Shown here in pieces: positions 2,877 to 55,606 of a stretch of 64,000 bases of DNA. The DNA is from Malacoraja senta. Lineage: Eukaryota. The stretch's first letter is position 1; each line of letters starts with the position of its first letter. The translations under genes and the position numbers were made by a program. Where the stretch lies: NCBI GenBank assembly GCA_038087875.1, contig CM075993.1, positions 11,720,001-11,784,000 on the forward strand, given 5' to 3'. The notes under the pieces were generated by a model, which saw only the letters and a program-made list of their open reading frames with translations, was not told where the DNA came from and did no database searches.

Positions 2877-3414
2877 ATTTTGTCCACTATCTAAAGCCTG
2901 GTCTTTCAAACCCTGGGAAGTGGATTATCATCTGCTTGGGATAGACACAAAATGCTGCAGTAACTCAGCGGGACAGGCAGCATCTCTGGTGAGAAGGAAT
3001 GAGTGACGTTTCGGGTCGAGACCATCAAGGGAAAAGCAAACGTGAGATATAGACATATCTTCAGACTATTTGCCCAAGGATTGAATCTATTTGCTCCAAG
3101 CTCACCAATTCCCCCAGCGCTATTTGTTTTTTAAATGTTTAATTTGTTTGGAGGGATTGGAGGGATATGGACCAAACGCGGGCAGGTGGGACTCGTGTAG
3201 ATGGGACATATTGGCCAGTGTGGGCAAGTTGGGCCGAAGGGCCTGTTTCCACATTGTATCACTCTATGACTCTAATTCCTTCAGTTCTGCGTTGTCATTA
3301 CATAGAACATGGAACAATAATGCACAGGATGCTTTGGCCCACAATGTCCATGCCAGACATGATGCCAAGTTAAACTGATCTCCAAGCTGCCTGCAAGTGA
3401 TCCATATTCCTACG

Positions 3415-3689
3415 CCTCACAGCTCCAGAGACCCGGGTTCGATCCTGACTACAGGTGTACGGAGTTTGTCTCTGGCATTGCGCGTGGGATTTTCTCTGGG
3501 AGCTCCAGTTTCCTCCCACACTCAAAAGACGTACAGGTTTGTAGGTTAATTGGCTTGGTGTAAATGTAAATTGTCCCTAGTGTGTGTAGTGTAAGTGTGT
3601 GGGGATCGCTGGTCGGCGAGGACTCGGTGATCTGACGGGCCTGTTTCCATGCTGTATCTCTAAACTAAACTAAATTAAACCAAACTAAA
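3415..3689 (+). mobile_element. V-SINE (HE1-like), 5' truncated
   Basis: B box, V-domain and (CTAAA)n tail. Confidence 0.8.
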
Positions 3690-7564: not shown

Positions 7565-7893
7565 GTGCACGAACACACACACACACACTGGTGCAGAGAC
7601 ACACACACACTGGTGCAGAGACACACACACACACTGGTGCACACACACACTCACACACACACACACACACACTGGTGCACGAACACACACACTGGTGCAC
7701 ACACACACACTGGTGCACGAACACACACACTGGTGCACACACACACACACACACACTGGTGCACACACACACACACACACACACTGGTGCACGAACACAC
7801 ACACTGGTGCACACACACACACACACACTGGTGCACACACACACACACACACACACTGGTGCACGAACACACACACACACTGGTGCAGGGACA
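7298..7893. repeat. Compound (CA)n minisatellite punctuated by CTGGTGCA(CGA/CGG/GAG)
   Basis: Read directly; it is the source of the spurious HTHT/CVCV ORFs. Confidence 0.97.
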
Positions 7894-7899
7894 CATTAT

Positions 7900-8470
7900 A
7901 CTGCATATCCCATGCTTCTGCCCACTAACCCAACCTATCCAAGTCACCCGCAGCCTCATAGCATCCTCCTCGCAGCTCACACTGCCACCCAACTTAGAGA
8001 TGTTACATTTAATTCCCATGTCTAAATCGTTAATATATATTGTAAACAACTGGGTTCTCAGCACCGAGCTTTGCGGCTCCCCACTGGCCACTGCCGACCA
8101 TTTTGAAAAAGACCCGTTAATTCCTACTTTTTGCTTCCTGTCTGCCAACCAGTTCTGTATCCATGTCAATACCCTACCCCCAATACCATGTGCTCTAATT
8201 TTGCCCACTAATCTCTTGTGTGGGACCTTGTCAAAAGGCTTTTTGAATGTCCAGATACACTACATCCACTGGCTCTCCCTTATACAATCTACTTGTCACA
8301 TCCTCCAAAAATTCCAAAGGATTAGTCATGCATGATTTCCCATCATAATTCCCTGCTGACTTTGACCGATCCCATCACTGCTTTCAAAATGCACTGCTAT
8401 AACATCTTTAATAATCGACTCAAGCATCTTCCCCACTACCGATGTAAGGCTAACTGGTCTATAATTCCCC
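7900..8470 (-). mobile_element. CR1 reverse-transcriptase fragment (degenerate)
   Basis: KIRAHGIGGRVLTWIQNWLADRKQKVGING..W..V.SG.PQ.SVL...LFTIYINDLD. Confidence 0.88.
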
Positions 8471-8560: not shown

Positions 8561-10975
8561 GGGGCGGCACAGTGCCACAGCGGTAGAATTGCTGCCTCAC
8601 AGGGCCAGAGGCCCAGGTTCGATCCTGACTATGGGTGCTGTCTGTACGGAGCTTGTACGTTCTCACCATGAACACGTGAGTTTTCTCCGGGTGCTCCGGT
8701 TTCCTCCCACACTGCAAATACGTGCGGGTTTGTACGTTGTGTAGGAAGGAACTGTTGATGCTGATTTTTTTTTATTTTTTTTTTAAAAAATTTAAATTTT
8801 TTTTATTTATTAGAAGTACATTACATTACAACCACATACATTAATACTCGTCATTTATATCTTCTTACAATTAATGTACTCCCTTTATTTATTTTTTTAC
8901 ACTAGAAAAGGAAAAGATTGAAAGAAAGAAGAAAGTGAAGGAAAAAGTGCAAGTGTAGAAAAGTGTAGAAAATGTAACAACAAAAAAGGACGAAGACCCT
9001 ATGAGAGCGAAATTAAAAACAAAAAGAAAAAGAGTTAAGAAATAGGCCCTAAGAAAAGAAAAGAGAAAGAGAAAAAAAGAGAAACAAATGTTTTTTTTTT
9101 TGAGCATCACGTAAATAGGACATACCAACTCTTCAACTATCATCCCCCCTTACCCGACCTCAATTTTTTTATTTTTTTTAAAGTACTTTTGCACCCTATG
9201 TTTGTAATAATTCTATAAATGCAGACCACGTCAGGTGGAAGTGATCTGGTTTACCTGCTAGGAGGAGTCTTATCTCTTCTAGGTGTAATGTTTCAAACAT
9301 ATTTGAAATCCACATATTTATAGTTGGTATTGGAGCCTTCTTCCAAAATTTTAGGATTAGCTTTTTTCCAGTTATTAACCCATAGTCCATTAATTTCCTT
9401 TGAAACACATTTAGTTCTGGATCATCTTCCGTTATTCCGAAGATAATCCATTCTGCTTTGGGTATCAGTCTTGTTTTAAATAACTTTGTAAAGATTTCAA
9501 AAATTTCATTCCAAAATTTTTGAATTTTTGTACAGAAGACAAATGAGTGCGTTATGGTAGCTTCTTGGGATTGACATTTATCACAAATAGATGATACGTT
9601 TGGGAAATTTTTATGAATTTTAGTTTTCGAATAATATAATCTATGTAAAATTTTAAATTGTATTAAAGTGTGTCTTACATTAATCGAGCATTTATGCACG
9701 TTTAATAAGTATTCATTCCAACTTTCCTTTGAAATTTTAATAGCTAACTCTTGTTCCCAGTCTCTTCTGATACCCTCCGTAGGTGGTATTTGTACATTTA
9801 AAATAATATTATACAAATATGATATTAAGTTTGCTGATTCCGCTTTTATCTGCATTGCCTCGTCCAATACATCTACTGGGTTATTATAATGATCTTTTGT
9901 ATATTTTTTCAAATAGTCGCATATTTGAAAATATTTAAAATATTGATTATTTCCGAGTTTATATTTTATTTGTAATTGTTGAAATGAAAGTAATTTTCCA
10001 GTTTCATACAAGTCACCAAGCGTTTTAATTCCTAGTCTATCCCATTGTGTATAAGCTTTATCTATAATAGAAGGACTAAACGAAGGGTTATTGACTATAG
10101 GTAATAAAAGTGATAAGTTTCTTAGTTTTAAATTTTGTTTTATTTGTTTCCAAATACGGATTGTACTATGAATAATTGGGTTCTTATTATAATTTATGTT
10201 ATTCAGTTTCATTGGAGAGAGGAGGATCGCTCCAATGTTTCTAGAGGAGCAATCCTCTTTCTCCATTACAATCCAGTCTACTTGCTGGGCGGAGTTATCC
10301 ATCAGTTGAATCATGTTTTTAATATTTACTGACCAATAATAATACATAAAATTAGGTAGTGCTAGACCCCCCAATACTTTAGGTTTATTCAGATGGGTTT
10401 TTTGTATTCTATGTGATTTATAGTCCCATATAAAATTAGTGATATCTGAGTCGAGTTTTTTTAAAAACTTCTTAGGTAAGTATATAGGAATTGATTGAAA
10501 TAGGTATAAAATTTGTGGTAAAAAGATCATTTTTATTGCGTTTATTCGGCCTATTAAAGACATCGGGAGCGTTTTCCAGAATTTAATTAATGTATTTAGT
10601 TTATTAAGTAGGGGGTCAAAATTTGCCCTGAATGCTGATTTAAACTGAAGATAGACGTAACAGCTGGAGTAACTCAGGGGGACAGGCGGCATCTCTGGAG
10701 AAAAGGAATAGGTGACATTTCAGGTCGAGACCTTTCTTCAGTCTCTGAAGAAGGATCTCGACCCAAAACGTCACCATACCTTCTCCCCAGAGATGCCGCC
10801 TGTCCCCCTGAGTTACTCCAGCTGTTACGTCTATCACTGGTCTGTAGGTTAATTGGCCTCTGTAAATAGTCCCTAGTGGGCAGGATAGAACTGGTGTGAC
10901 CAGGTGATCTCTGGTTGGCGTGGGCTTGGTGGCCCCAAGGGCCTGTTTCCACGCTGCATCTCTGGAGTTTAAAGT
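8561..10975 (+). mobile_element. V-SINE (8561-8735 and 10841-10975) split by a Penelope fold-back (8739-8767 and 10642-10835), itself split by L1
   Basis: The SINE sequence resumes at TGTAGGTTAATTGG after the insertions; the PLE arm resumes after the L1. Confidence 0.8.
8768..10631 (-). mobile_element. 5'-truncated L1-clade LINE: uninterrupted ORF2 C-terminal part (9196 to about 10631), 3'UTR and poly(A)
   Basis: SLIGRINAIKMIFLPQILYLFQSIP, GGLALPNF, CCHC-type CDKC..ATITHSFVFC; direct repeat ATGCTGATTT at 8758-8767 and 10632-10641. Confidence 0.92.
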
Positions 10976-19054: not shown

Positions 19055-19254
19055 NNNNNNNNNNNNNNNNNNNNNNNNNNNNNNNNNNNNNNNNNNNNNN
19101 NNNNNNNNNNNNNNNNNNNNNNNNNNNNNNNNNNNNNNNNNNNNNNNNNNNNNNNNNNNNNNNNNNNNNNNNNNNNNNNNNNNNNNNNNNNNNNNNNNNN
19201 NNNNNNNNNNNNNNNNNNNNNNNNNNNNNNNNNNNNNNNNNNNNNNNNNNNNNN
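19055..19254. other. Assembly gap (200 N)
   Basis: Run of exactly 200 N, i.e. a placeholder scaffolding gap. Confidence 0.99.
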
Positions 19255-24457: not shown

Positions 24458-24554
24458 TTTAATTTTTTAACTGGAAGCCCAGCATGTGTATGGCTAGTTT
24501 TTGTGCTAGTTTGAGTTAAAGAATAAGGACAGAATCCAGGAAACCAGGTTTAAT
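24458..24554 (-). terminator. Candidate ATTAAA polyadenylation signals of the long VPS13C isoform (24554-24549, 24463-24458)
   Basis: tttaat hexamers in AT-rich, repeat-free sequence 290-380 nt past the stop codon; no canonical AATAAA noticed nearby. Confidence 0.3.
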
Positions 24555-28085: not shown

Positions 28086-28174
28086 CTTGGCCACAACGTC
28101 ATTCTGGAGGGTCACTTTTTCACTAAACCTTCCGTCTCATTTCTTGGGCTTGTAAAAGCAATCAGTGACTGATC
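28086..28174 (-). CDS. VPS13C: VPS13C coding exon (DQSLIAFTSPRNETEGLVK[K]VTLQNDVVAK) with an apparent 1-nt deletion in the A-run at 28116-28120
   Basis: cttttccag|GAT...GCCAAG|gtaaat. Length is 89 nt where 3n is needed; adding one A to the A5 run restores the frame into the last exon. Confidence 0.78.
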
Positions 28175-31449: not shown

Positions 31450-31569
31450 CTTGACATACAAGCTCAGCACACTCCCGTCCAACGTTGGAGGCCGGATAAT
31501 TCATCATACGAGTAATTCCAATCACTACACGGATTGCACAGGATCTCATCACATATGTAGATCACTCTC
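31450..31569 (-). CDS. VPS13C: VPS13C coding exon (RVIYICDEILCNPCSDWNYSYDE[F]IRPPTLDGSVLSLYVK) with an apparent 1-nt deletion near 31498
   Basis: ctttcag|G AGA GTG...GTC AAG|gtacat. Length is 120 nt where 3n+1 is needed; restoring GAA TTT ATC gives continuous similarity to VPS13C (DW.....F..PP......L...VK). Confidence 0.82.
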
Positions 31570-35222: not shown

Positions 35223-35314
35223 CTGTTTGTGATGAGCAGATTCGTTTTTTTCTTCCCATACAATGGACAATGAAAACGATAGCGTTCCCCTTCAAATTTT
35301 TGAATGTCCAACCT
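35223..35314 (-). CDS. VPS13C: VPS13C coding exon (RLDIQKFEGERYRFHCPLYGKKKTNLLITN-R), start of PH-like domain
   Basis: ttacag|AGG...AACAG|gtacgc, 92 nt, phase 0 to 2; aligns by eye with the recalled human NHIKKLEGETYRYHCAIPGSKKTILMVTNR. Confidence 0.9.
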
Positions 35315-37612: not shown

Positions 37613-39980
37613 ATTCTGCACTCTGATTCTTCCTAAGATAGACAAATTGCTGGAGTAACTCGGTGGGACAGGCAGCATCTCTGGAGAGAAGGAATGGGTG
37701 GCGTTTTGTGTCGAGACCCTTCTTCAGATTGATGTCAGGGAAGGGGGGGGGGGGGGGGATAGTGGTCTGTTTCTTCCTCTTTGGTTTGTATACTTTACGA
37801 GTTTATTTAGATTGTTTTATCTATGGTATTAACTGATCTGATTGAATAATGTAAAACAAAGTGTTCTCTATACTATGATATACATGACAATAATAAACCT
37901 CAACTTTTGTACATTCACCCTATCTATTCTCATAAATTTAGACACCTCTATAAGATCACCCCTTAACTTCCTACGCTCCAAGAAATAAAGTCCTAGCCCG
38001 CCCAACTTTTTCCCTATAGCTCTGCACTCTTTCAAACGTGATAACGTTCTTCCTATAACATGGCGACCAAAGCTGAACACGGTACTCCAAATGCGGCCTC
38101 ACCAATGTCTTGTACAACTGTAAAGTCCCAATGTCTATTCTCATCCAACAACTTTAGGCTGTGCACGCCATACGCAAGAAGAAGAAATCTATTCTCAATA
38201 CCCTGACTAAAGGGCAATGTAAATAAAGCCGTCGTCCCCACCCCATCTCCCTGTGATGCTACTTCCAGAATACGATGTCCCTGCATTCCAAGATAGATCT
38301 CACAGCTCTAGAACACTTCCTACAGCCCTACCAGTCACTGTGAAGGTCCTGCCCTGGTTTGAATTCTCACTTTTCGTGTTTCTCAGAATCCTCTCCAGTA
38401 GCTCACCTACCACAGACTTCAGGCTCACTGGTCTATAGTTCCCAGATTTTTCTTTGCACCCCTTCTTAAATAGAGGCAAAGCGACAGTCGCTCGTTAATT
38501 TTCCGGCACCTCATCCGTGTCTAACGATGATTCACATATCTCAGGTAGGGCTCTCTAGCTTCCTACATCATCCTTAGATATATCTGTTCGGGACCGGGAG
38601 ATTTATACCAACTGTCCTAAAAGCAATGAGATTAACCGTCCCAAGTTCCCAAGCCATTGTTTTTCTTCATGGTAAAAACAGAGGCAACATGCTCATTGAG
38701 GACCTCGCCCATCTCCTTCCGCTCCACACGGATGACTGCTCTGGTTTTTGACATTACCCAAATTCCCTTCATTACATAAAACACACTCCAAAGACTAATT
38801 AACTTTGGTAACATTGTATATTGTCTCTAGTGTGTGTAGGATAGTGTCAGTGTGTACGGGGTGATCGCAGGTCAGCGTGGACTCAGTGGGCCGAAGGGCC
38901 TGTTTCTGTGCTGTATCTCTAAAGTCTAAACTGGATTTCCAATCGCATGCTAGGTTTGTGGCATTGCTAGAGTGAAGGGCAAGGCATGTGGGAATAAGGA
39001 AGCCTGGATGATGTGAGAATTCGGTGACCCCTGGTTCTGGACTCCCCCAACATCGGAAACATTTTTCCTGCACTTAGCCTGTCCAATCCCTTAAGAATTT
39101 TATATGTTTCTATAAGATCCTCTCTCATCCTTCTAAATTCCAGTTAATATAAGCCCAGTCGACCTATACGTTCATCATATGTCAGTCCCTCCATCCCGGG
39201 AATTAACCTGGAGATTGACCAGGATGTGCCTGGGATGGAGTGTTTCAATTACCAGGAGACCAGGTCTGTTTTCCCTGGAGTGAAGTAGGTTCAGAGGGGA
39301 CATCATTGAGGAGCATAAAATTAGGAGAGGTATAGGTAGGGTAAACTGCAGGAAACTTTTCCCTTTGAAGTAAATAAACCTGGAGGACATAGATTAAGTG
39401 TCAAGGAAGGAATATTTAGAGGGGATCTGAGGGGTTCTCCAGAAAGTAATGATGATCTGAAACATATTTCTGGAGGGAGTGGTGGTGCAGAGTTACTGAC
39501 AGGATTTAAGAAGTGTTTAGACCAGCACTTGAACTGCCTTGGCATTGAAGTCTACAGGTCAAGAGGTGGAAGATAGGATTAACACGGATGCATGCCACAG
39601 GTCGATGTGGACATGGTGGACCAAGTAGCCTGCTTCTATACTGTGCGTTACAGTGGTTCAATTGACTAACAATCATTGCAGGGTGTTCTGGTGACGCTAA
39701 CATTGGTCGGTCCTTCTGCTTACGTGCAAGGCAACAAAACAATGATATCCCACCACAAATCAAACTGAGATTGAATACAATAAAAGGAAAATATAAAACC
39801 ATAATTAAAATACAACCCATATTTATTTTACATCTAGGTGGTGGTCATTATTCATACAATAGAAGAGGGAATAAATAATCACAGTGAATATAGAAAAAGA
39901 AAAGCCAAGTGTCATGAGCAGAATTATTGGTGTTTCAGGATATATTTCCTCATGGACATGAAACATTTACAATCGATATG

Positions 39981-39986
39981 TTTATT
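39981..39986 (-). terminator. Candidate polyadenylation signal AATAAA for the short isoform (second candidate at 39822-39827)
   Basis: tttatt on + strand about 200 nt past the TAA at 40183. The distal hexamer is followed by T/GT-rich sequence on the minus strand. Confidence 0.45.
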
Positions 39987-40182
39987 GATGAGACTACAGA
40001 TTCATTTGTAATGTAGTTTATCCAAAGTACAAGATGATTCAAGATGGAATGTGGTACTGTAATGTAGCATGGATCCAATAAATATATATATTACAAATCT
40101 AAATGTATTTACATTTGTTACTGAGACATAAAAATAAACAGGTTAAAAGAAAGAGTAAAGAGTCAGAACAGAATTTGAAATC

Positions 40183-40197
40183 TTAATCCGCATCTTG
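40183..40197 (-). CDS. VPS13C: Probable alternative terminal exon of VPS13C (QDAD*), giving a short isoform without the C-terminal PH-like domain
   Basis: Minus strand reads TTCTAAC branch point (40233-40227), pyrimidine tract ttttttttctttctctcttt, then catgcag|CAA GAT GCG GAT TAA. Phase 0 matches the donor at 52062. An AT-rich repeat-free 3'UTR follows with AATAAA at 39986-39981 and 39827-39822. Confidence 0.65.
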   Translation of the reverse strand, partial: QDAD

Positions 40198-40413
40198 CTG
40201 CATGTTTAAAGAGAGAAAGAAAAAAAGTTAGAATCTTGCCGTATTAATAAGCAACGAGTCAAATGCTTTTTCATTTAACGATTTTGGACATTACTAATAT
40301 AAACAAAAATTTAAGCAGAAGAGAAAGCTGGAAAAACAAAATCACAGTTTGGGGAGGAGATGTAGTTTAGTAGAGGAGGCGTAACGAAACATAAACCAAG
40401 ATAAACTGTTTTT

Positions 40414-41140
40414 CAAGATGGCGGATGTGCAGGAGTGGGCGCCGTTTGTACGGGCGCCTGCCTGCAGTCCGTCCTCTAACTCTTTTTATTTTCTATAACT
40501 TTTATTTGGAGGTCTATTCTTTCTTTGTGGGGTTGGGTGGGGGTGGAAACTGTTTTAACCCCAGTTCTACCTGGTCGGAGATGCGGTTTTCCTCCAAATC
40601 GCATCTTCTCTCTCCCCATGCGGCCTTCCATCGTGCTGGAGCTGCGTTTCCTGCCGGGGACCACAGCTTCGGCGGGCGGCGCTGGGTCGAAAACACCGCG
40701 GAGTCAGAGTCAGACTCCAACCGGCGCGGCCTGAAGACTACGGGCGTCGCAGTCTCCGGGGAGGGAGCGGCCGCTCCAGACACTACCAAGCTGCTGAGGA
40801 CTTTCCACCCAATGCCGGTGTTCCAGCTTCCCGGCAGGTGGGCATACAACATCGGGCTGCCGTTGCGGCGACTGGCTGCGGAGGCCTCAAACTGGCCCCG
40901 ACCTCGGGTGGACTAGGAGGAAGAGGAGGAGGACTGGACATTTTGGTGCCTTTCCCTCACAGTGGAGAGTGTCGACTGTGGGGATGTTCGTGTTGAATTT
41001 CTCATAGTGTGTTGTGTCTTGGTTTCTACCTCTCTTTTTTTTTCATTTATATGGATAATTTTCTCTGTAAAGCACTTTGGCTTCTTTGATTGAAATTGAT
41101 TGAAAAGTGCTATATAAATAAATGTACTTTACTATACTAT
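40414..41140 (+). mobile_element. CpG-rich non-autonomous retroposon (5' CAAGATGGCG head, L2-type 3' tail)
   Basis: Starts CAAGATGGCGG; ends TGTAAAGCACTTTG...GAAAAGTGCTATATAAATAAATGTACTT; no ORF. Confidence 0.6.
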
Positions 41141-50239: not shown

Positions 50240-51280
50240 TAGGTATGTCACAAAACTTACCTTCAGTCGCGCTGTAATTCTGCCACTGGCCGTGTGCGCG
50301 ATTTTGGCGCCTTTAAGGGGGGGGCGGGGTTAAAACGCGGTTTCTCCTCCCTTGTCCTGGAAATATTTTGTTGGAGTACAAAACTTCGCTGACAAAATCG
50401 TTCCTACCGGCGATTTGTGAATTTTTAAAAAAAATTAAATCGTCAATGTCAGCGCTACAGTCATTTTAAAAGCAGCTCCTGAAGCGTCAACGCCAATAAC
50501 GGGGACGGATTTCACACAATGGACAGGTAAACGAAAGTGCTTTCTTTAAATGTATAAAAGTGCTTCTTAAGAAGCCTTTAATTCACATTTTGTCATGCGA
50601 CACGGTGATTTTATTCCCCGAATTAACGGCAGTATTTTTCATGCCAATACGGGGTTAAATTCACCGCAAATGAACGTTCCAAAAGATCGCGTTCCAGAAA
50701 TTCTCACTCGCAAGATGAATTAAATCCCCATTAATTTACAGGTATTAAACATTCAATTCCTTCCATTTGGCCTGTAAATTCATGAAAATTAGATTTAAAA
50801 ATTATGTTATATTGTGAATTATTGTGTGAATGTTATTTGGACACTTAGGCTATTTAAAAATGTTAATCTATTCTTAAGAAATTGATAGATGTTTAGATCT
50901 AGTAATTGAATTTTGTAATTAGCTACAATTAGGTAACTAACTAATTATATGCTTTACTTTCATGTCTTCGAAGTAAGATTGTTTCATATTTGTTTCAGAA
51001 TGCTTCAATCTATAATACCTGAAAATTTCTTTCAGTTACCATAATTTTTAAGAAAGTTATGGGCTTTTAACTGTCCTCGATCACAGCTTTTGTGTTAAGT
51101 CAATGGAAAAGCAATAGGGAACTAGATGCTAATTTCTGAGTATGATAATGGCCATAACTTTTTTAATACTGAAGATATGAAAGTGAATTAAGTGTCAAAT
51201 TAAACTTCTTTTTATGCTTTATCTGATGGGATAAATTGCAGACTTTATTTTTTAAATCTCAAAATTTTGTAACATTGCTA
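50240..51280. mobile_element. About 1.04-kb non-autonomous DNA transposon with imperfect TIRs (TAG...CTA termini, possibly hAT-like), inserted in a (TG)n satellite
   Basis: Left end TAGGTATGTCACAAAACTT versus reverse complement of right end TAGCAATGTTACAAAATTT; no ORF; second copy at the window start. Confidence 0.7.
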
Positions 51281-51491
51281 GTATGTATGTGTATGTGTGT
51301 GTATGTGTGGTGTGTGTGTGTGTGGTGTATGTGTGTGTGTAGTGTGTATGTATGTGTATGTGTGTGTGTGTGTATGTCTGTGTGTGTGTGTGTGTGTGCG
51401 TGTGTGCGTGTGTGTGCGTGCGTGTGTGTGTGTGTGTGTGTAGTGTGTGTGTGTGCGTGTGTGCGTGTGTGCGTGTGTGCGTGTGTGCGTG

Positions 51492-52061: not shown

Positions 52062-52176
52062 CTCAAACAGGTGACATCCCTCAGACTCTCTTCGATTGTA
52101 CGGCCTGATAATCCCATCGTCACGAATGCATCGCGGTGGACGCAGTTTACTTACATCTTCAGTCGATTCTGCCACC
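52062..52176 (-). CDS. VPS13C: VPS13C coding exon (VAESTEDVSKLRPPRCIRDDGIIRPYNRRESEGCHLFE)
   Basis: caacag|G...GAG|gtaagt, 115 nt, phase 2 to 0; LRPPR..DGIIRPY motif. Confidence 0.95.
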
Positions 52177-55482: not shown

Positions 55483-55606
55483 TTTTTGATTCCCTGGAAA
55501 GTGCTGCTTGCCATGTCAATGATGCCGCCGGTCGGCCGCGCCACCACTCCCACCAGACCTTTGCCCACTCCTTTAAAGAAACCAGCTGCACCTTCCTTCC
55601 TCGCAC
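55483..55606 (-). CDS. VPS13C: VPS13C coding exon (ARKEGAAGFFKGVGKGLVGVVARPTGGIIDMASSTFQGIK-K)
   Basis: acag|GT...AAAAA|gtaaga, 124 nt, phase 1 to 2; hallmark VPS13 motif GFFKGVGKGLVG. Confidence 0.95.

Follow-up and report, generated by a model that had tools for sequence, protein, structure and literature searches.

A probable four-codon alternative last exon in the VPS13C gene of the skate Malacoraja senta and its counterparts in other jawed vertebrates

The 3' end of VPS13C lies on the minus strand of a 64,000-nucleotide stretch of the Malacoraja senta genome (assembly GCA_038087875.1, contig CM075993.1, positions 11,720,001 to 11,784,000; hereafter, the window), as found by tblastn with skate VPS13C. 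Within a long intron of this gene we describe a very short alternative last exon, which encodes four residues and a stop codon and whose use would end the protein ahead of the PH-like domain. In our judgement it is very probable that this exon exists, that it is used, and that it is orthologous to the alternative last exon 82 of human VPS13C. The exon itself is no discovery, as it is annotated in sister skates and has been validated in human. What is added here is the breadth of its conservation, a parallel arrangement in the paralog VPS13A, and support of RNA type from a relative, also a skate.

VPS13C acts in lipid transport and is a gene of Parkinson's disease; its C-terminal ATG2C-PH region is the focus of current work on the sensing of lysosome stress. 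A natural PH-less form, present in human and on record from chimaera to primates, could be tested in place of engineered deletions.

Signals and contigs of the short exon

When Leucoraja VPS13C was used as query, seven exon matches with 78-96% identity were detected in the window by tblastn, plus a second-frame piece of one exon. The exon that precedes the junction (38 codons) has VPS13C, not VPS13A, as its closest sequence match: the best hit is to residues 3585-3621 of human VPS13C (E = 4.7e-11), vs E = 1.5e-4 for VPS13A. The residues found before the junction in Leucoraja and Amblyraja VPS13C are those encoded by this exon. From its donor at 52062, an intron of 16,747 nt extends to the acceptor at 35314, where the long ending begins. 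The 3' splice site of the short exon, at 40197, is located inside this intron, between exons 52176-52062 and 35314-35223.

A first inspection of the letters of the window (hereafter, the sequence-only reading) had pointed out a textbook branch point TTCTAAC, a long pyrimidine tract and a CAG acceptor, followed by CAA GAT GCG GAT TAA in the phase required by the donor at 52062. Each of these elements was found in its place on the minus strand (Table 1). Because the donor (GTAAGT) is in phase 0, the four-codon frame that opens at 40197 is the correct one. The same reading had described an AT-rich, repeat-free 3' untranslated region (UTR) with two AATAAA motifs, a description that stood up to analysis: the GC content is 29% over 39822-40182, no self-repeat was detected within the window, and the short-exon region is single-copy in a DNA-type sequencing run from a relative (X10; depth about 18.7 over 39676-40380). 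Multi-copy elements occur on both sides, with X10 depths of up to about 15,000 upstream (40381-40700) and about 760 downstream (39300-39675), so that a single-copy island of about 700 bases surrounds the short exon. The rest of the intron had been called transposon-saturated in the sequence-only reading; self-BLAST of the window assigns at least 27% of the intron to repeats, a figure that is a lower bound.

Two controls addressed the role of chance. Under a loose acceptor filter, 3 sites pass in the whole intron, and among these the strict branch consensus occurs only at 40197. A strict site of this kind appeared in 3 of 200 block shuffles (1.5%), using a filter of our own making that was set after the site had been seen. 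In addition, 35 of the 915 AG dinucleotides of the intron lead into four codons plus a stop. When these candidates were scored against ten short tails from databases, 40197 gave the best match to vertebrate short tails (11.0, vs 3.1 for the next candidate).

Contigs from sequencing runs of relatives were also analyzed. Ten runs cover part of 39700-40300, none of them recorded as RNA, and four (X1, X2, X6 and X10) were examined over 39300-40700. X1 and X2 belong to the same study and the same organism, which is not that of the window; their RNA type is a guess, and X2 carries the flag 'probably DNA'. Each yields one minus-strand contig (400 and 392 nt, respectively) in which base 29 aligns to window position 40199, and the alignments extend to 39828 and 39836. 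The two sides of the splice, donor exon and acceptor, carry a terminal AG each, and the bases that precede it are different, so that the alignment of a spliced molecule starts precisely at 40199. Together with this AG, the 28 bases left unaligned amount to 30, which would be the overlap expected where an assembly graph built on 31-base words (the length given in the assembler description) branches after the common exon. Such branching would imply that a second path exists in the X1 and X2 samples. The DNA-type contigs, X6 (39971-40364) and X10 (39544-40392), continue through the acceptor as genomic sequence. Among the differences listed, both deviate in the pyrimidine tract only by a one-base length change at 40219-40220. 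A single change in the four codons of X10 turns the tail into QDVD, the tail of RefSeq records XP_032870853 and XP_055518722.

Concerning the 3' end of the transcript, the sequence-only reading had expected RNA ends near 39960 or 39800. The X1 and X2 contigs include the proximal AATAAA without a break and end 1 and 9 bases, respectively, short of the distal one, whereas X10 goes on. As contigs do not reveal where an RNA ends, and these belong to a single study, they give a weak hint that the distal AATAAA is in use.

Short isoforms in other jawed vertebrates and in VPS13A

We examined 205 VPS13C records, made of search best hits (best 120 of 1601 hits) and cluster members. Of these, 195 span the junction, and in 25 the tail is no longer than 50 residues. 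Twenty of these short tails, from 17 species, fit the pattern [QHP]-[DE]-x-[DE], with IQE appended in the mammals, and with one shark record that lacks the initial residue; the pattern was fitted after the fact, and the short-tail records are gene predictions. The 17 species include 11 cartilaginous fish, a chimaera among them, as well as a sturgeon, a frog, two birds and two mammals. The tails found are QDVD (Amblyraja, Leucoraja), PDTD (Rhinoraja), QDMD (Pristis), HDMD (Hypanus, Mobula), QDME (two Chiloscyllium species), QDKE (Stegostoma), DME (Scyliorhinus), QEME (the chimaera Callorhinchus), HEME (the sturgeon Acipenser), QELD (the frog Ascaphus), QELE (the birds Anser and Strigops) and QELEIQE (the donkey, Equus, and the slow loris, Nycticebus). 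With the tail of the window, a graded series can be drawn: QDAD, QDVD, QDME, QEME, HEME, QELD, QELE, QELEIQE. No short form of coelacanth or lungfish was found among the records examined, lungfish being represented by one long record.

The proposal of the sequence-only reading that the long/short switch is ancestral to jawed vertebrates is therefore supported by short isoforms from chimaera to mammals. The exon had also been called hidden, which is true for open reading frame finders but not for databases, as RefSeq already predicts the isoform in sister skates.

Tails of other kinds were detected as well. A second short tail, nine residues long, occurs at the junction in both paralogs in some sharks and skates (VPS13A P0452, P0460 and P0464; VPS13C P0159 and P0175). 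A counterpart of the 9-residue tail of Carcharodon and Mustelus was not found in the window intron (best scores 13-14). The DME tail (P0164, Scyliorhinus canicula X4) would be that expected from a tandem acceptor three bases downstream. Distant VPS13 models (P0182, P0188, P0192, P0211, P0220 and P0241) diverge at the junction with Val, like read-through of a GT donor, which suggests that the intron position is old and maybe common to non-vertebrates.

Human VPS13C exon 82 is an alternative last exon validated by reverse-transcription polymerase chain reaction with primers E80S-E82AS/E83AS, which give products of 245 and 206 bp (PMC2875023). Tissue differences of 2.76 (cerebellum vs spleen) and 3.27 (breast/cerebellum) are given for this exon, in a row that leaves their direction unclear (PMC2875023). 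In the window, the best match of the human E80S primer (15 of 20 bases) is found at 55515, two exons upstream, with 148 spliced nucleotides to the junction. Because this distance fits products of 245 and 206 bp (arithmetic made by hand), human exon 82 can be placed at the same junction, as the sequence-only reading had held. The brief, acidic, Q-initiated tail that the sequence-only reading gives for human was observed in the donkey and slow loris records, on which the evidence for mammals rests; the human short proteins would be the 'B' isoforms of UniProt entry Q709C8. The human VPS13C variants were reportedly described for the first time in 2004 by Velayos-Baeza.

In the open-access literature, we found neither a study of the conservation of the short exon or of the short VPS13C protein nor a paper on the RefSeq short VPS13C isoforms of skates. 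UniProt isoform 2A is named in one article (PMC5005967), and another points out that sites of action as yet unknown may come to light through splice variants (PMC8325632). Word searches in the accessible text of PMC7613979, PMC7881566, PMC8325632 and PMC9104724 retrieved no description of the short VPS13C exon. The words 'isoform' and 'splic' are absent from the main texts of the recent VPS13C mechanism papers PMC13430412, PMC12081312 and PMC13328759.

A parallel arrangement is found in VPS13A. Skate VPS13C and torpedo-ray VPS13A can be aligned without gaps across the junction. The junction is spanned in 155 of 160 VPS13A records; 23 tails are no longer than 50 residues, and two of the 23 are empty. 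In fish, the short VPS13A tails start at the junction homologous to that of VPS13C; they are acidic, with 20-22 residues, in bichir, reedfish and teleosts, and have 41-46 or 9 residues in skates and sharks. Human VPS13A exon 69 presumably starts at exactly this junction. Human VPS13A isoform B ends in alternative exon 69, has no PH domain and carries an acidic tail (PMC9436381). Since the alternative last exons of VPS13A start at the homologous junction, the intron in which the PH domain is switched off is the same for the two paralogs.

A tentative extension of this view, towards which we lean less than against it, is that a PH switch made by an alternative last exon in this intron predates the VPS13A/VPS13C duplication, and has been kept by both of these disease genes for more than 400 million years as a tissue-level control of the membrane on which the lipid bridge docks. 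If this were true, short VPS13C would be an overlooked functional class outside lysosome damage repair, and would be unaffected by Parkinson's-related variants in PH exons. One long-type record each is contained in the clusters examined for lamprey and hagfish, and no acidic short tail of the kind considered here was found among 150 distant representatives (one protein per cluster).

The VPS13A tails of cartilaginous fish show a peculiarity of their own. In records P0448, P0451, P0458, P0459, P0462, P0471 and P0473, from skates and sharks, the 41-46-residue tail starts like the acidic tail of bony fish and then becomes rich in Met, Thr and Ile. In the four of these tails that were analyzed, reading in a shifted frame could give 5-7 Asp within 14 positions, a content reached by 0-1 of 400 control segments; the segment was picked by eye, from protein records. 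It may be that cartilaginous fish read the Asp run of VPS13A isoform B out of frame.

Predicted properties of the short protein

Loss of the PH-like domain, which the sequence-only reading had anticipated, is borne out by structure prediction. The short form ends four residues past the junction, and the long form 130. The Pfam VPS13_C model covers residues 369-478 of the skate run-contig protein P0002, with the junction at 396, so that about 28 of the residues covered by the Pfam model remain in the short form. A skate C-terminus of 221 residues was modelled by AlphaFold from a 35-sequence alignment (mean pLDDT 75.6). In this structure the junction is residue 91, at the end of helix 81-91, and every strand is found after it, together with a long helix (188-217). 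The modelled fold matches PH-type domains in Foldseek; the VPS13C cryo-electron microscopy chain was absent among the matches listed, which were other PH-fold proteins only. According to the AlphaFold model, the short form lacks the whole PH fold and the terminal helix. It retains the Rab7-binding VAB domain and the ATG2C helices; the latter are considered to be kept because V3563 maps, by hand count, to the common exon 55606-55483. A classical PDZ-binding motif was considered for the short tail and rejected, as the final residue is not hydrophobic.

We propose that the acceptors at 40197 and 35314 compete for the donor at 52062. If 40197 is chosen, the transcript would end in the intron, with cleavage and polyadenylation after the distal AATAAA; if it is skipped, splicing to 35314 would give the long, PH-containing form. 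The long/short ratio would be set in each tissue by exon choice. A stop codon located in the terminal exon is not expected to trigger nonsense-mediated decay, and since this is the location of the stop in the short mRNA, the latter should escape decay and make protein.

What such a protein might do can be considered by analogy with engineered constructs. We give about even chances to the possibility that it is a natural PH-less lipid bridge, still able to bind the endoplasmic reticulum (ER), Rab7 (through VAB) and lipid droplets (through ATG2C). A bridge of this kind might tether stressed lysosomes and would not stay on damaged ones, as described for a VPS13C protein with an engineered PH deletion, which binds bead-stressed lysosomes and is cytosolic after treatment with L-leucyl-L-leucine methyl ester, LLOMe (PMC13328759). 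Rab7 binding is independent of the PH domain (PMC13430412). A point that counts against the analogy is that the engineered deletion, as judged from the numbering offset, probably begins some 37 residues ahead of the natural junction and is therefore an imperfect stand-in.

A more doubtful interpretation is that the repression of VPS13C is partly relieved in the short protein, which would be a loosened form: having lost the terminal helix, it would bind Rab7 and transfer lipids without a damage signal. The inactive conformation seen by cryo-electron microscopy has helix 3731-3745, located after the PH domain, in contact with VAB repeat 1 (PMC13430412), and deletion of ATG2C plus PH results in constitutive lysosome binding and frees Rab7 binding (PMC12081312). 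However, the constitutively binding construct is also devoid of ATG2C (PMC12081312), and the C-terminal cap (3289-3418), which makes most of the closed-state interface (PMC13430412), is retained in the short form. Furthermore, a protein with the PH domain only deleted left lysosomes upon damage (PMC13328759).

It seems just as unlikely to us that the short exon is mainly an attenuator, its choice reducing the amount of PH-containing VPS13C and the short protein being unstable or without a function of its own. The third residue of the tail is free to vary (A, V, T, M, K, L), and about 30 residues kept by the short form, for which the model of the long form indicates good order (blocks 61-90, pLDDT 81-94), may be left partnerless. 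Besides, the short VPS13A tail of sharks and skates is maybe in a frame other than that of bony fish, a hint that removal of the PH domain outweighs the new peptide. The tail is not, however, free of constraint: 15 of 17 species share a length of four residues and a pair of acidic positions (one of the 15 without the first residue), and the two mammals add three residues. The PH-less isoform B of the paralog VPS13A is still found at ER-mitochondria contacts when expressed (PMC9436381).

Origin of the exon, other features of the window and known systems

Our conclusion that the short exon is used and shared with other vertebrates has to face several unfavorable observations. In X1 and X2, the splice is deduced from the geometry of contigs over 39300-40700, a stretch that does not include the donor exon, and not from the letters of the 28 unaligned bases. 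Moreover, both runs represent a single study and a single relative, and their RNA nature is guessed. In X10, nucleotide conservation above background was not found, with 37 differences in 849 positions in the exon-containing contig vs 13 in 252 in the flank (95.6% vs 94.8% identity). Five of the 25 short VPS13C tails do not fit the pattern: three are initiated with Val and look like donor read-through into the intron, and two, from sharks, are the 9-residue tail mentioned above. Lastly, the matching database isoforms are predictions, and no protein-level evidence was seen for any short form.

One might argue that short tails have been gained separately from cryptic acceptors in a long intron, in which case the switch would not be ancestral. 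Four codons carry little information, the comparison between sharks and bony vertebrates is made on peptides rather than on a DNA alignment, and two sharks have an unrelated tail. Even so, length and residue pattern recur in chimaera (QEME), sturgeon (HEME), frog (QELD), birds (QELE) and elasmobranchs, and only 1 of the 35 four-codon candidates in the window intron fits the pattern, which makes separate gains very unlikely. Hardly credible at all is a chance acceptor-like sequence, never used, in an AT-rich patch of the intron: the RNA-type contigs do come from a relative and not from the organism of the window, and they are judged by their alignment rather than by junction letters, but the geometry of contigs in two runs, the identity of the X10 tail QDVD with annotated skate isoforms, and the shuffle rate of 1.5% speak against it.

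Table 1. Elements of the short exon and exons of VPS13C in the window
Feature	Position	Strand	Basis
Branch-point consensus TTCTAAC (branch A probably at 40228)	40227..40233	-	sequence; sole strict branch + tract acceptor in the intron
Polypyrimidine tract and CAG acceptor	40198..40226	-	19 consecutive pyrimidines, 40226-40208; CAG at 40200-40198
Alternative last exon, coding part CAA GAT GCG GAT TAA (Gln-Asp-Ala-Asp-stop)	40183..40197	-	X1 and X2 contigs begin at the acceptor; X10 variant QDVD
3' UTR of the short isoform, AT-rich, single-copy; predicted end near 39800	39800..40182	-	covered from 40199 to 39828 (X1 contig) and 39836 (X2 contig)
Proximal AATAAA	39981..39986	-	sequence; RNA-type contigs read through
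Distal AATAAA, followed by a U-rich stretch; likely poly(A) signal	39822..39827	-	sequence; RNA-type contigs end 1 and 9 bases before
VPS13C coding exon	63754-63591	-	tblastn
VPS13C coding exon	60414-60369	-	tblastn
VPS13C exon corresponding to human exon 80, ATG2C amphipathic-helix region, common to both isoforms	55483..55606	-	tblastn; best match of human primer E80S, 15/20 bases at 55515
Last exon common to both isoforms, corresponding to human exon 81, 115 nt, phase-0 GTAAGT donor	52062..52176	-	match to human VPS13C
First exon of the long (PH-containing) ending, corresponding to human exon 83; competing acceptor	35223..35314	-	tblastn, boundaries read
Second exon of the long form; one base short in the T run 31499-31498 in the assembly	31450..31569	-	tblastn
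Third exon of the long form; one base short in the A run 28120-28116 in the assembly	28086..28174	-	tblastn
Final coding exon of the long form, with the C-terminal helix and the stop codon	24840..24929	-	tblastn

The one-base deficits in two exons of the long form, both in homopolymer runs, are most likely errors of the long-read assembly. Were they real, only the short form of VPS13C would be intact in this skate. In skate relatives the long form is made, as run-contig proteins P0002, P0009 and P0010 continue uninterrupted into the PH exons. AATAAA/ATTAAA-type signals at 24554 and 24463 (minus strand), 290-380 bases past the long-form stop, are candidate poly(A) signals for the long isoform.

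Elsewhere in the window, an AT-rich island at about 50400-51290 was considered as a possible exon and discarded, as it is mostly repeated within the window and has no acceptor candidate; flanked by CA-type microsatellites, it is probably the remnant of a DNA transposon. Retroelement remains are found downstream of the gene, on the minus strand: an open frame of 507 codons in a very AT-rich stretch (9199-10719), which matches zf-RVT weakly, and a fragment of reverse transcriptase (7654-8259), both below the Pfam cut-off. An assembly gap of 200 N occupies 19055-19254.

Among known systems, the short isoforms of Amblyraja radiata (X3, XP_032870853.1), Leucoraja erinacea (X3, XP_055518722.1) and Rhinoraja longicauda (X4, XP_078286095.1), which are computational RefSeq models, share with the window the same junction, after ...CHLFE, and a four-residue tail. 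The sole difference is in the residues of the tail, which are QDVD, QDVD and PDTD, respectively, vs QDAD in the window. Human VPS13C exon 82 has the same location, past the counterpart of exon 81 and ahead of the first PH exon, and is tissue-regulated in human; the mammalian tail, as seen in the donkey and slow loris records, has seven residues instead of four. VPS13A differs further. Its tails have 20-46 residues with a K/R...W pattern, whereas that of VPS13C consists of four acidic-type residues, and no likeness is evident by eye. Furthermore, the PH domain of VPS13A binds XK and mitochondria, and that of VPS13C does not (PMC9436381).

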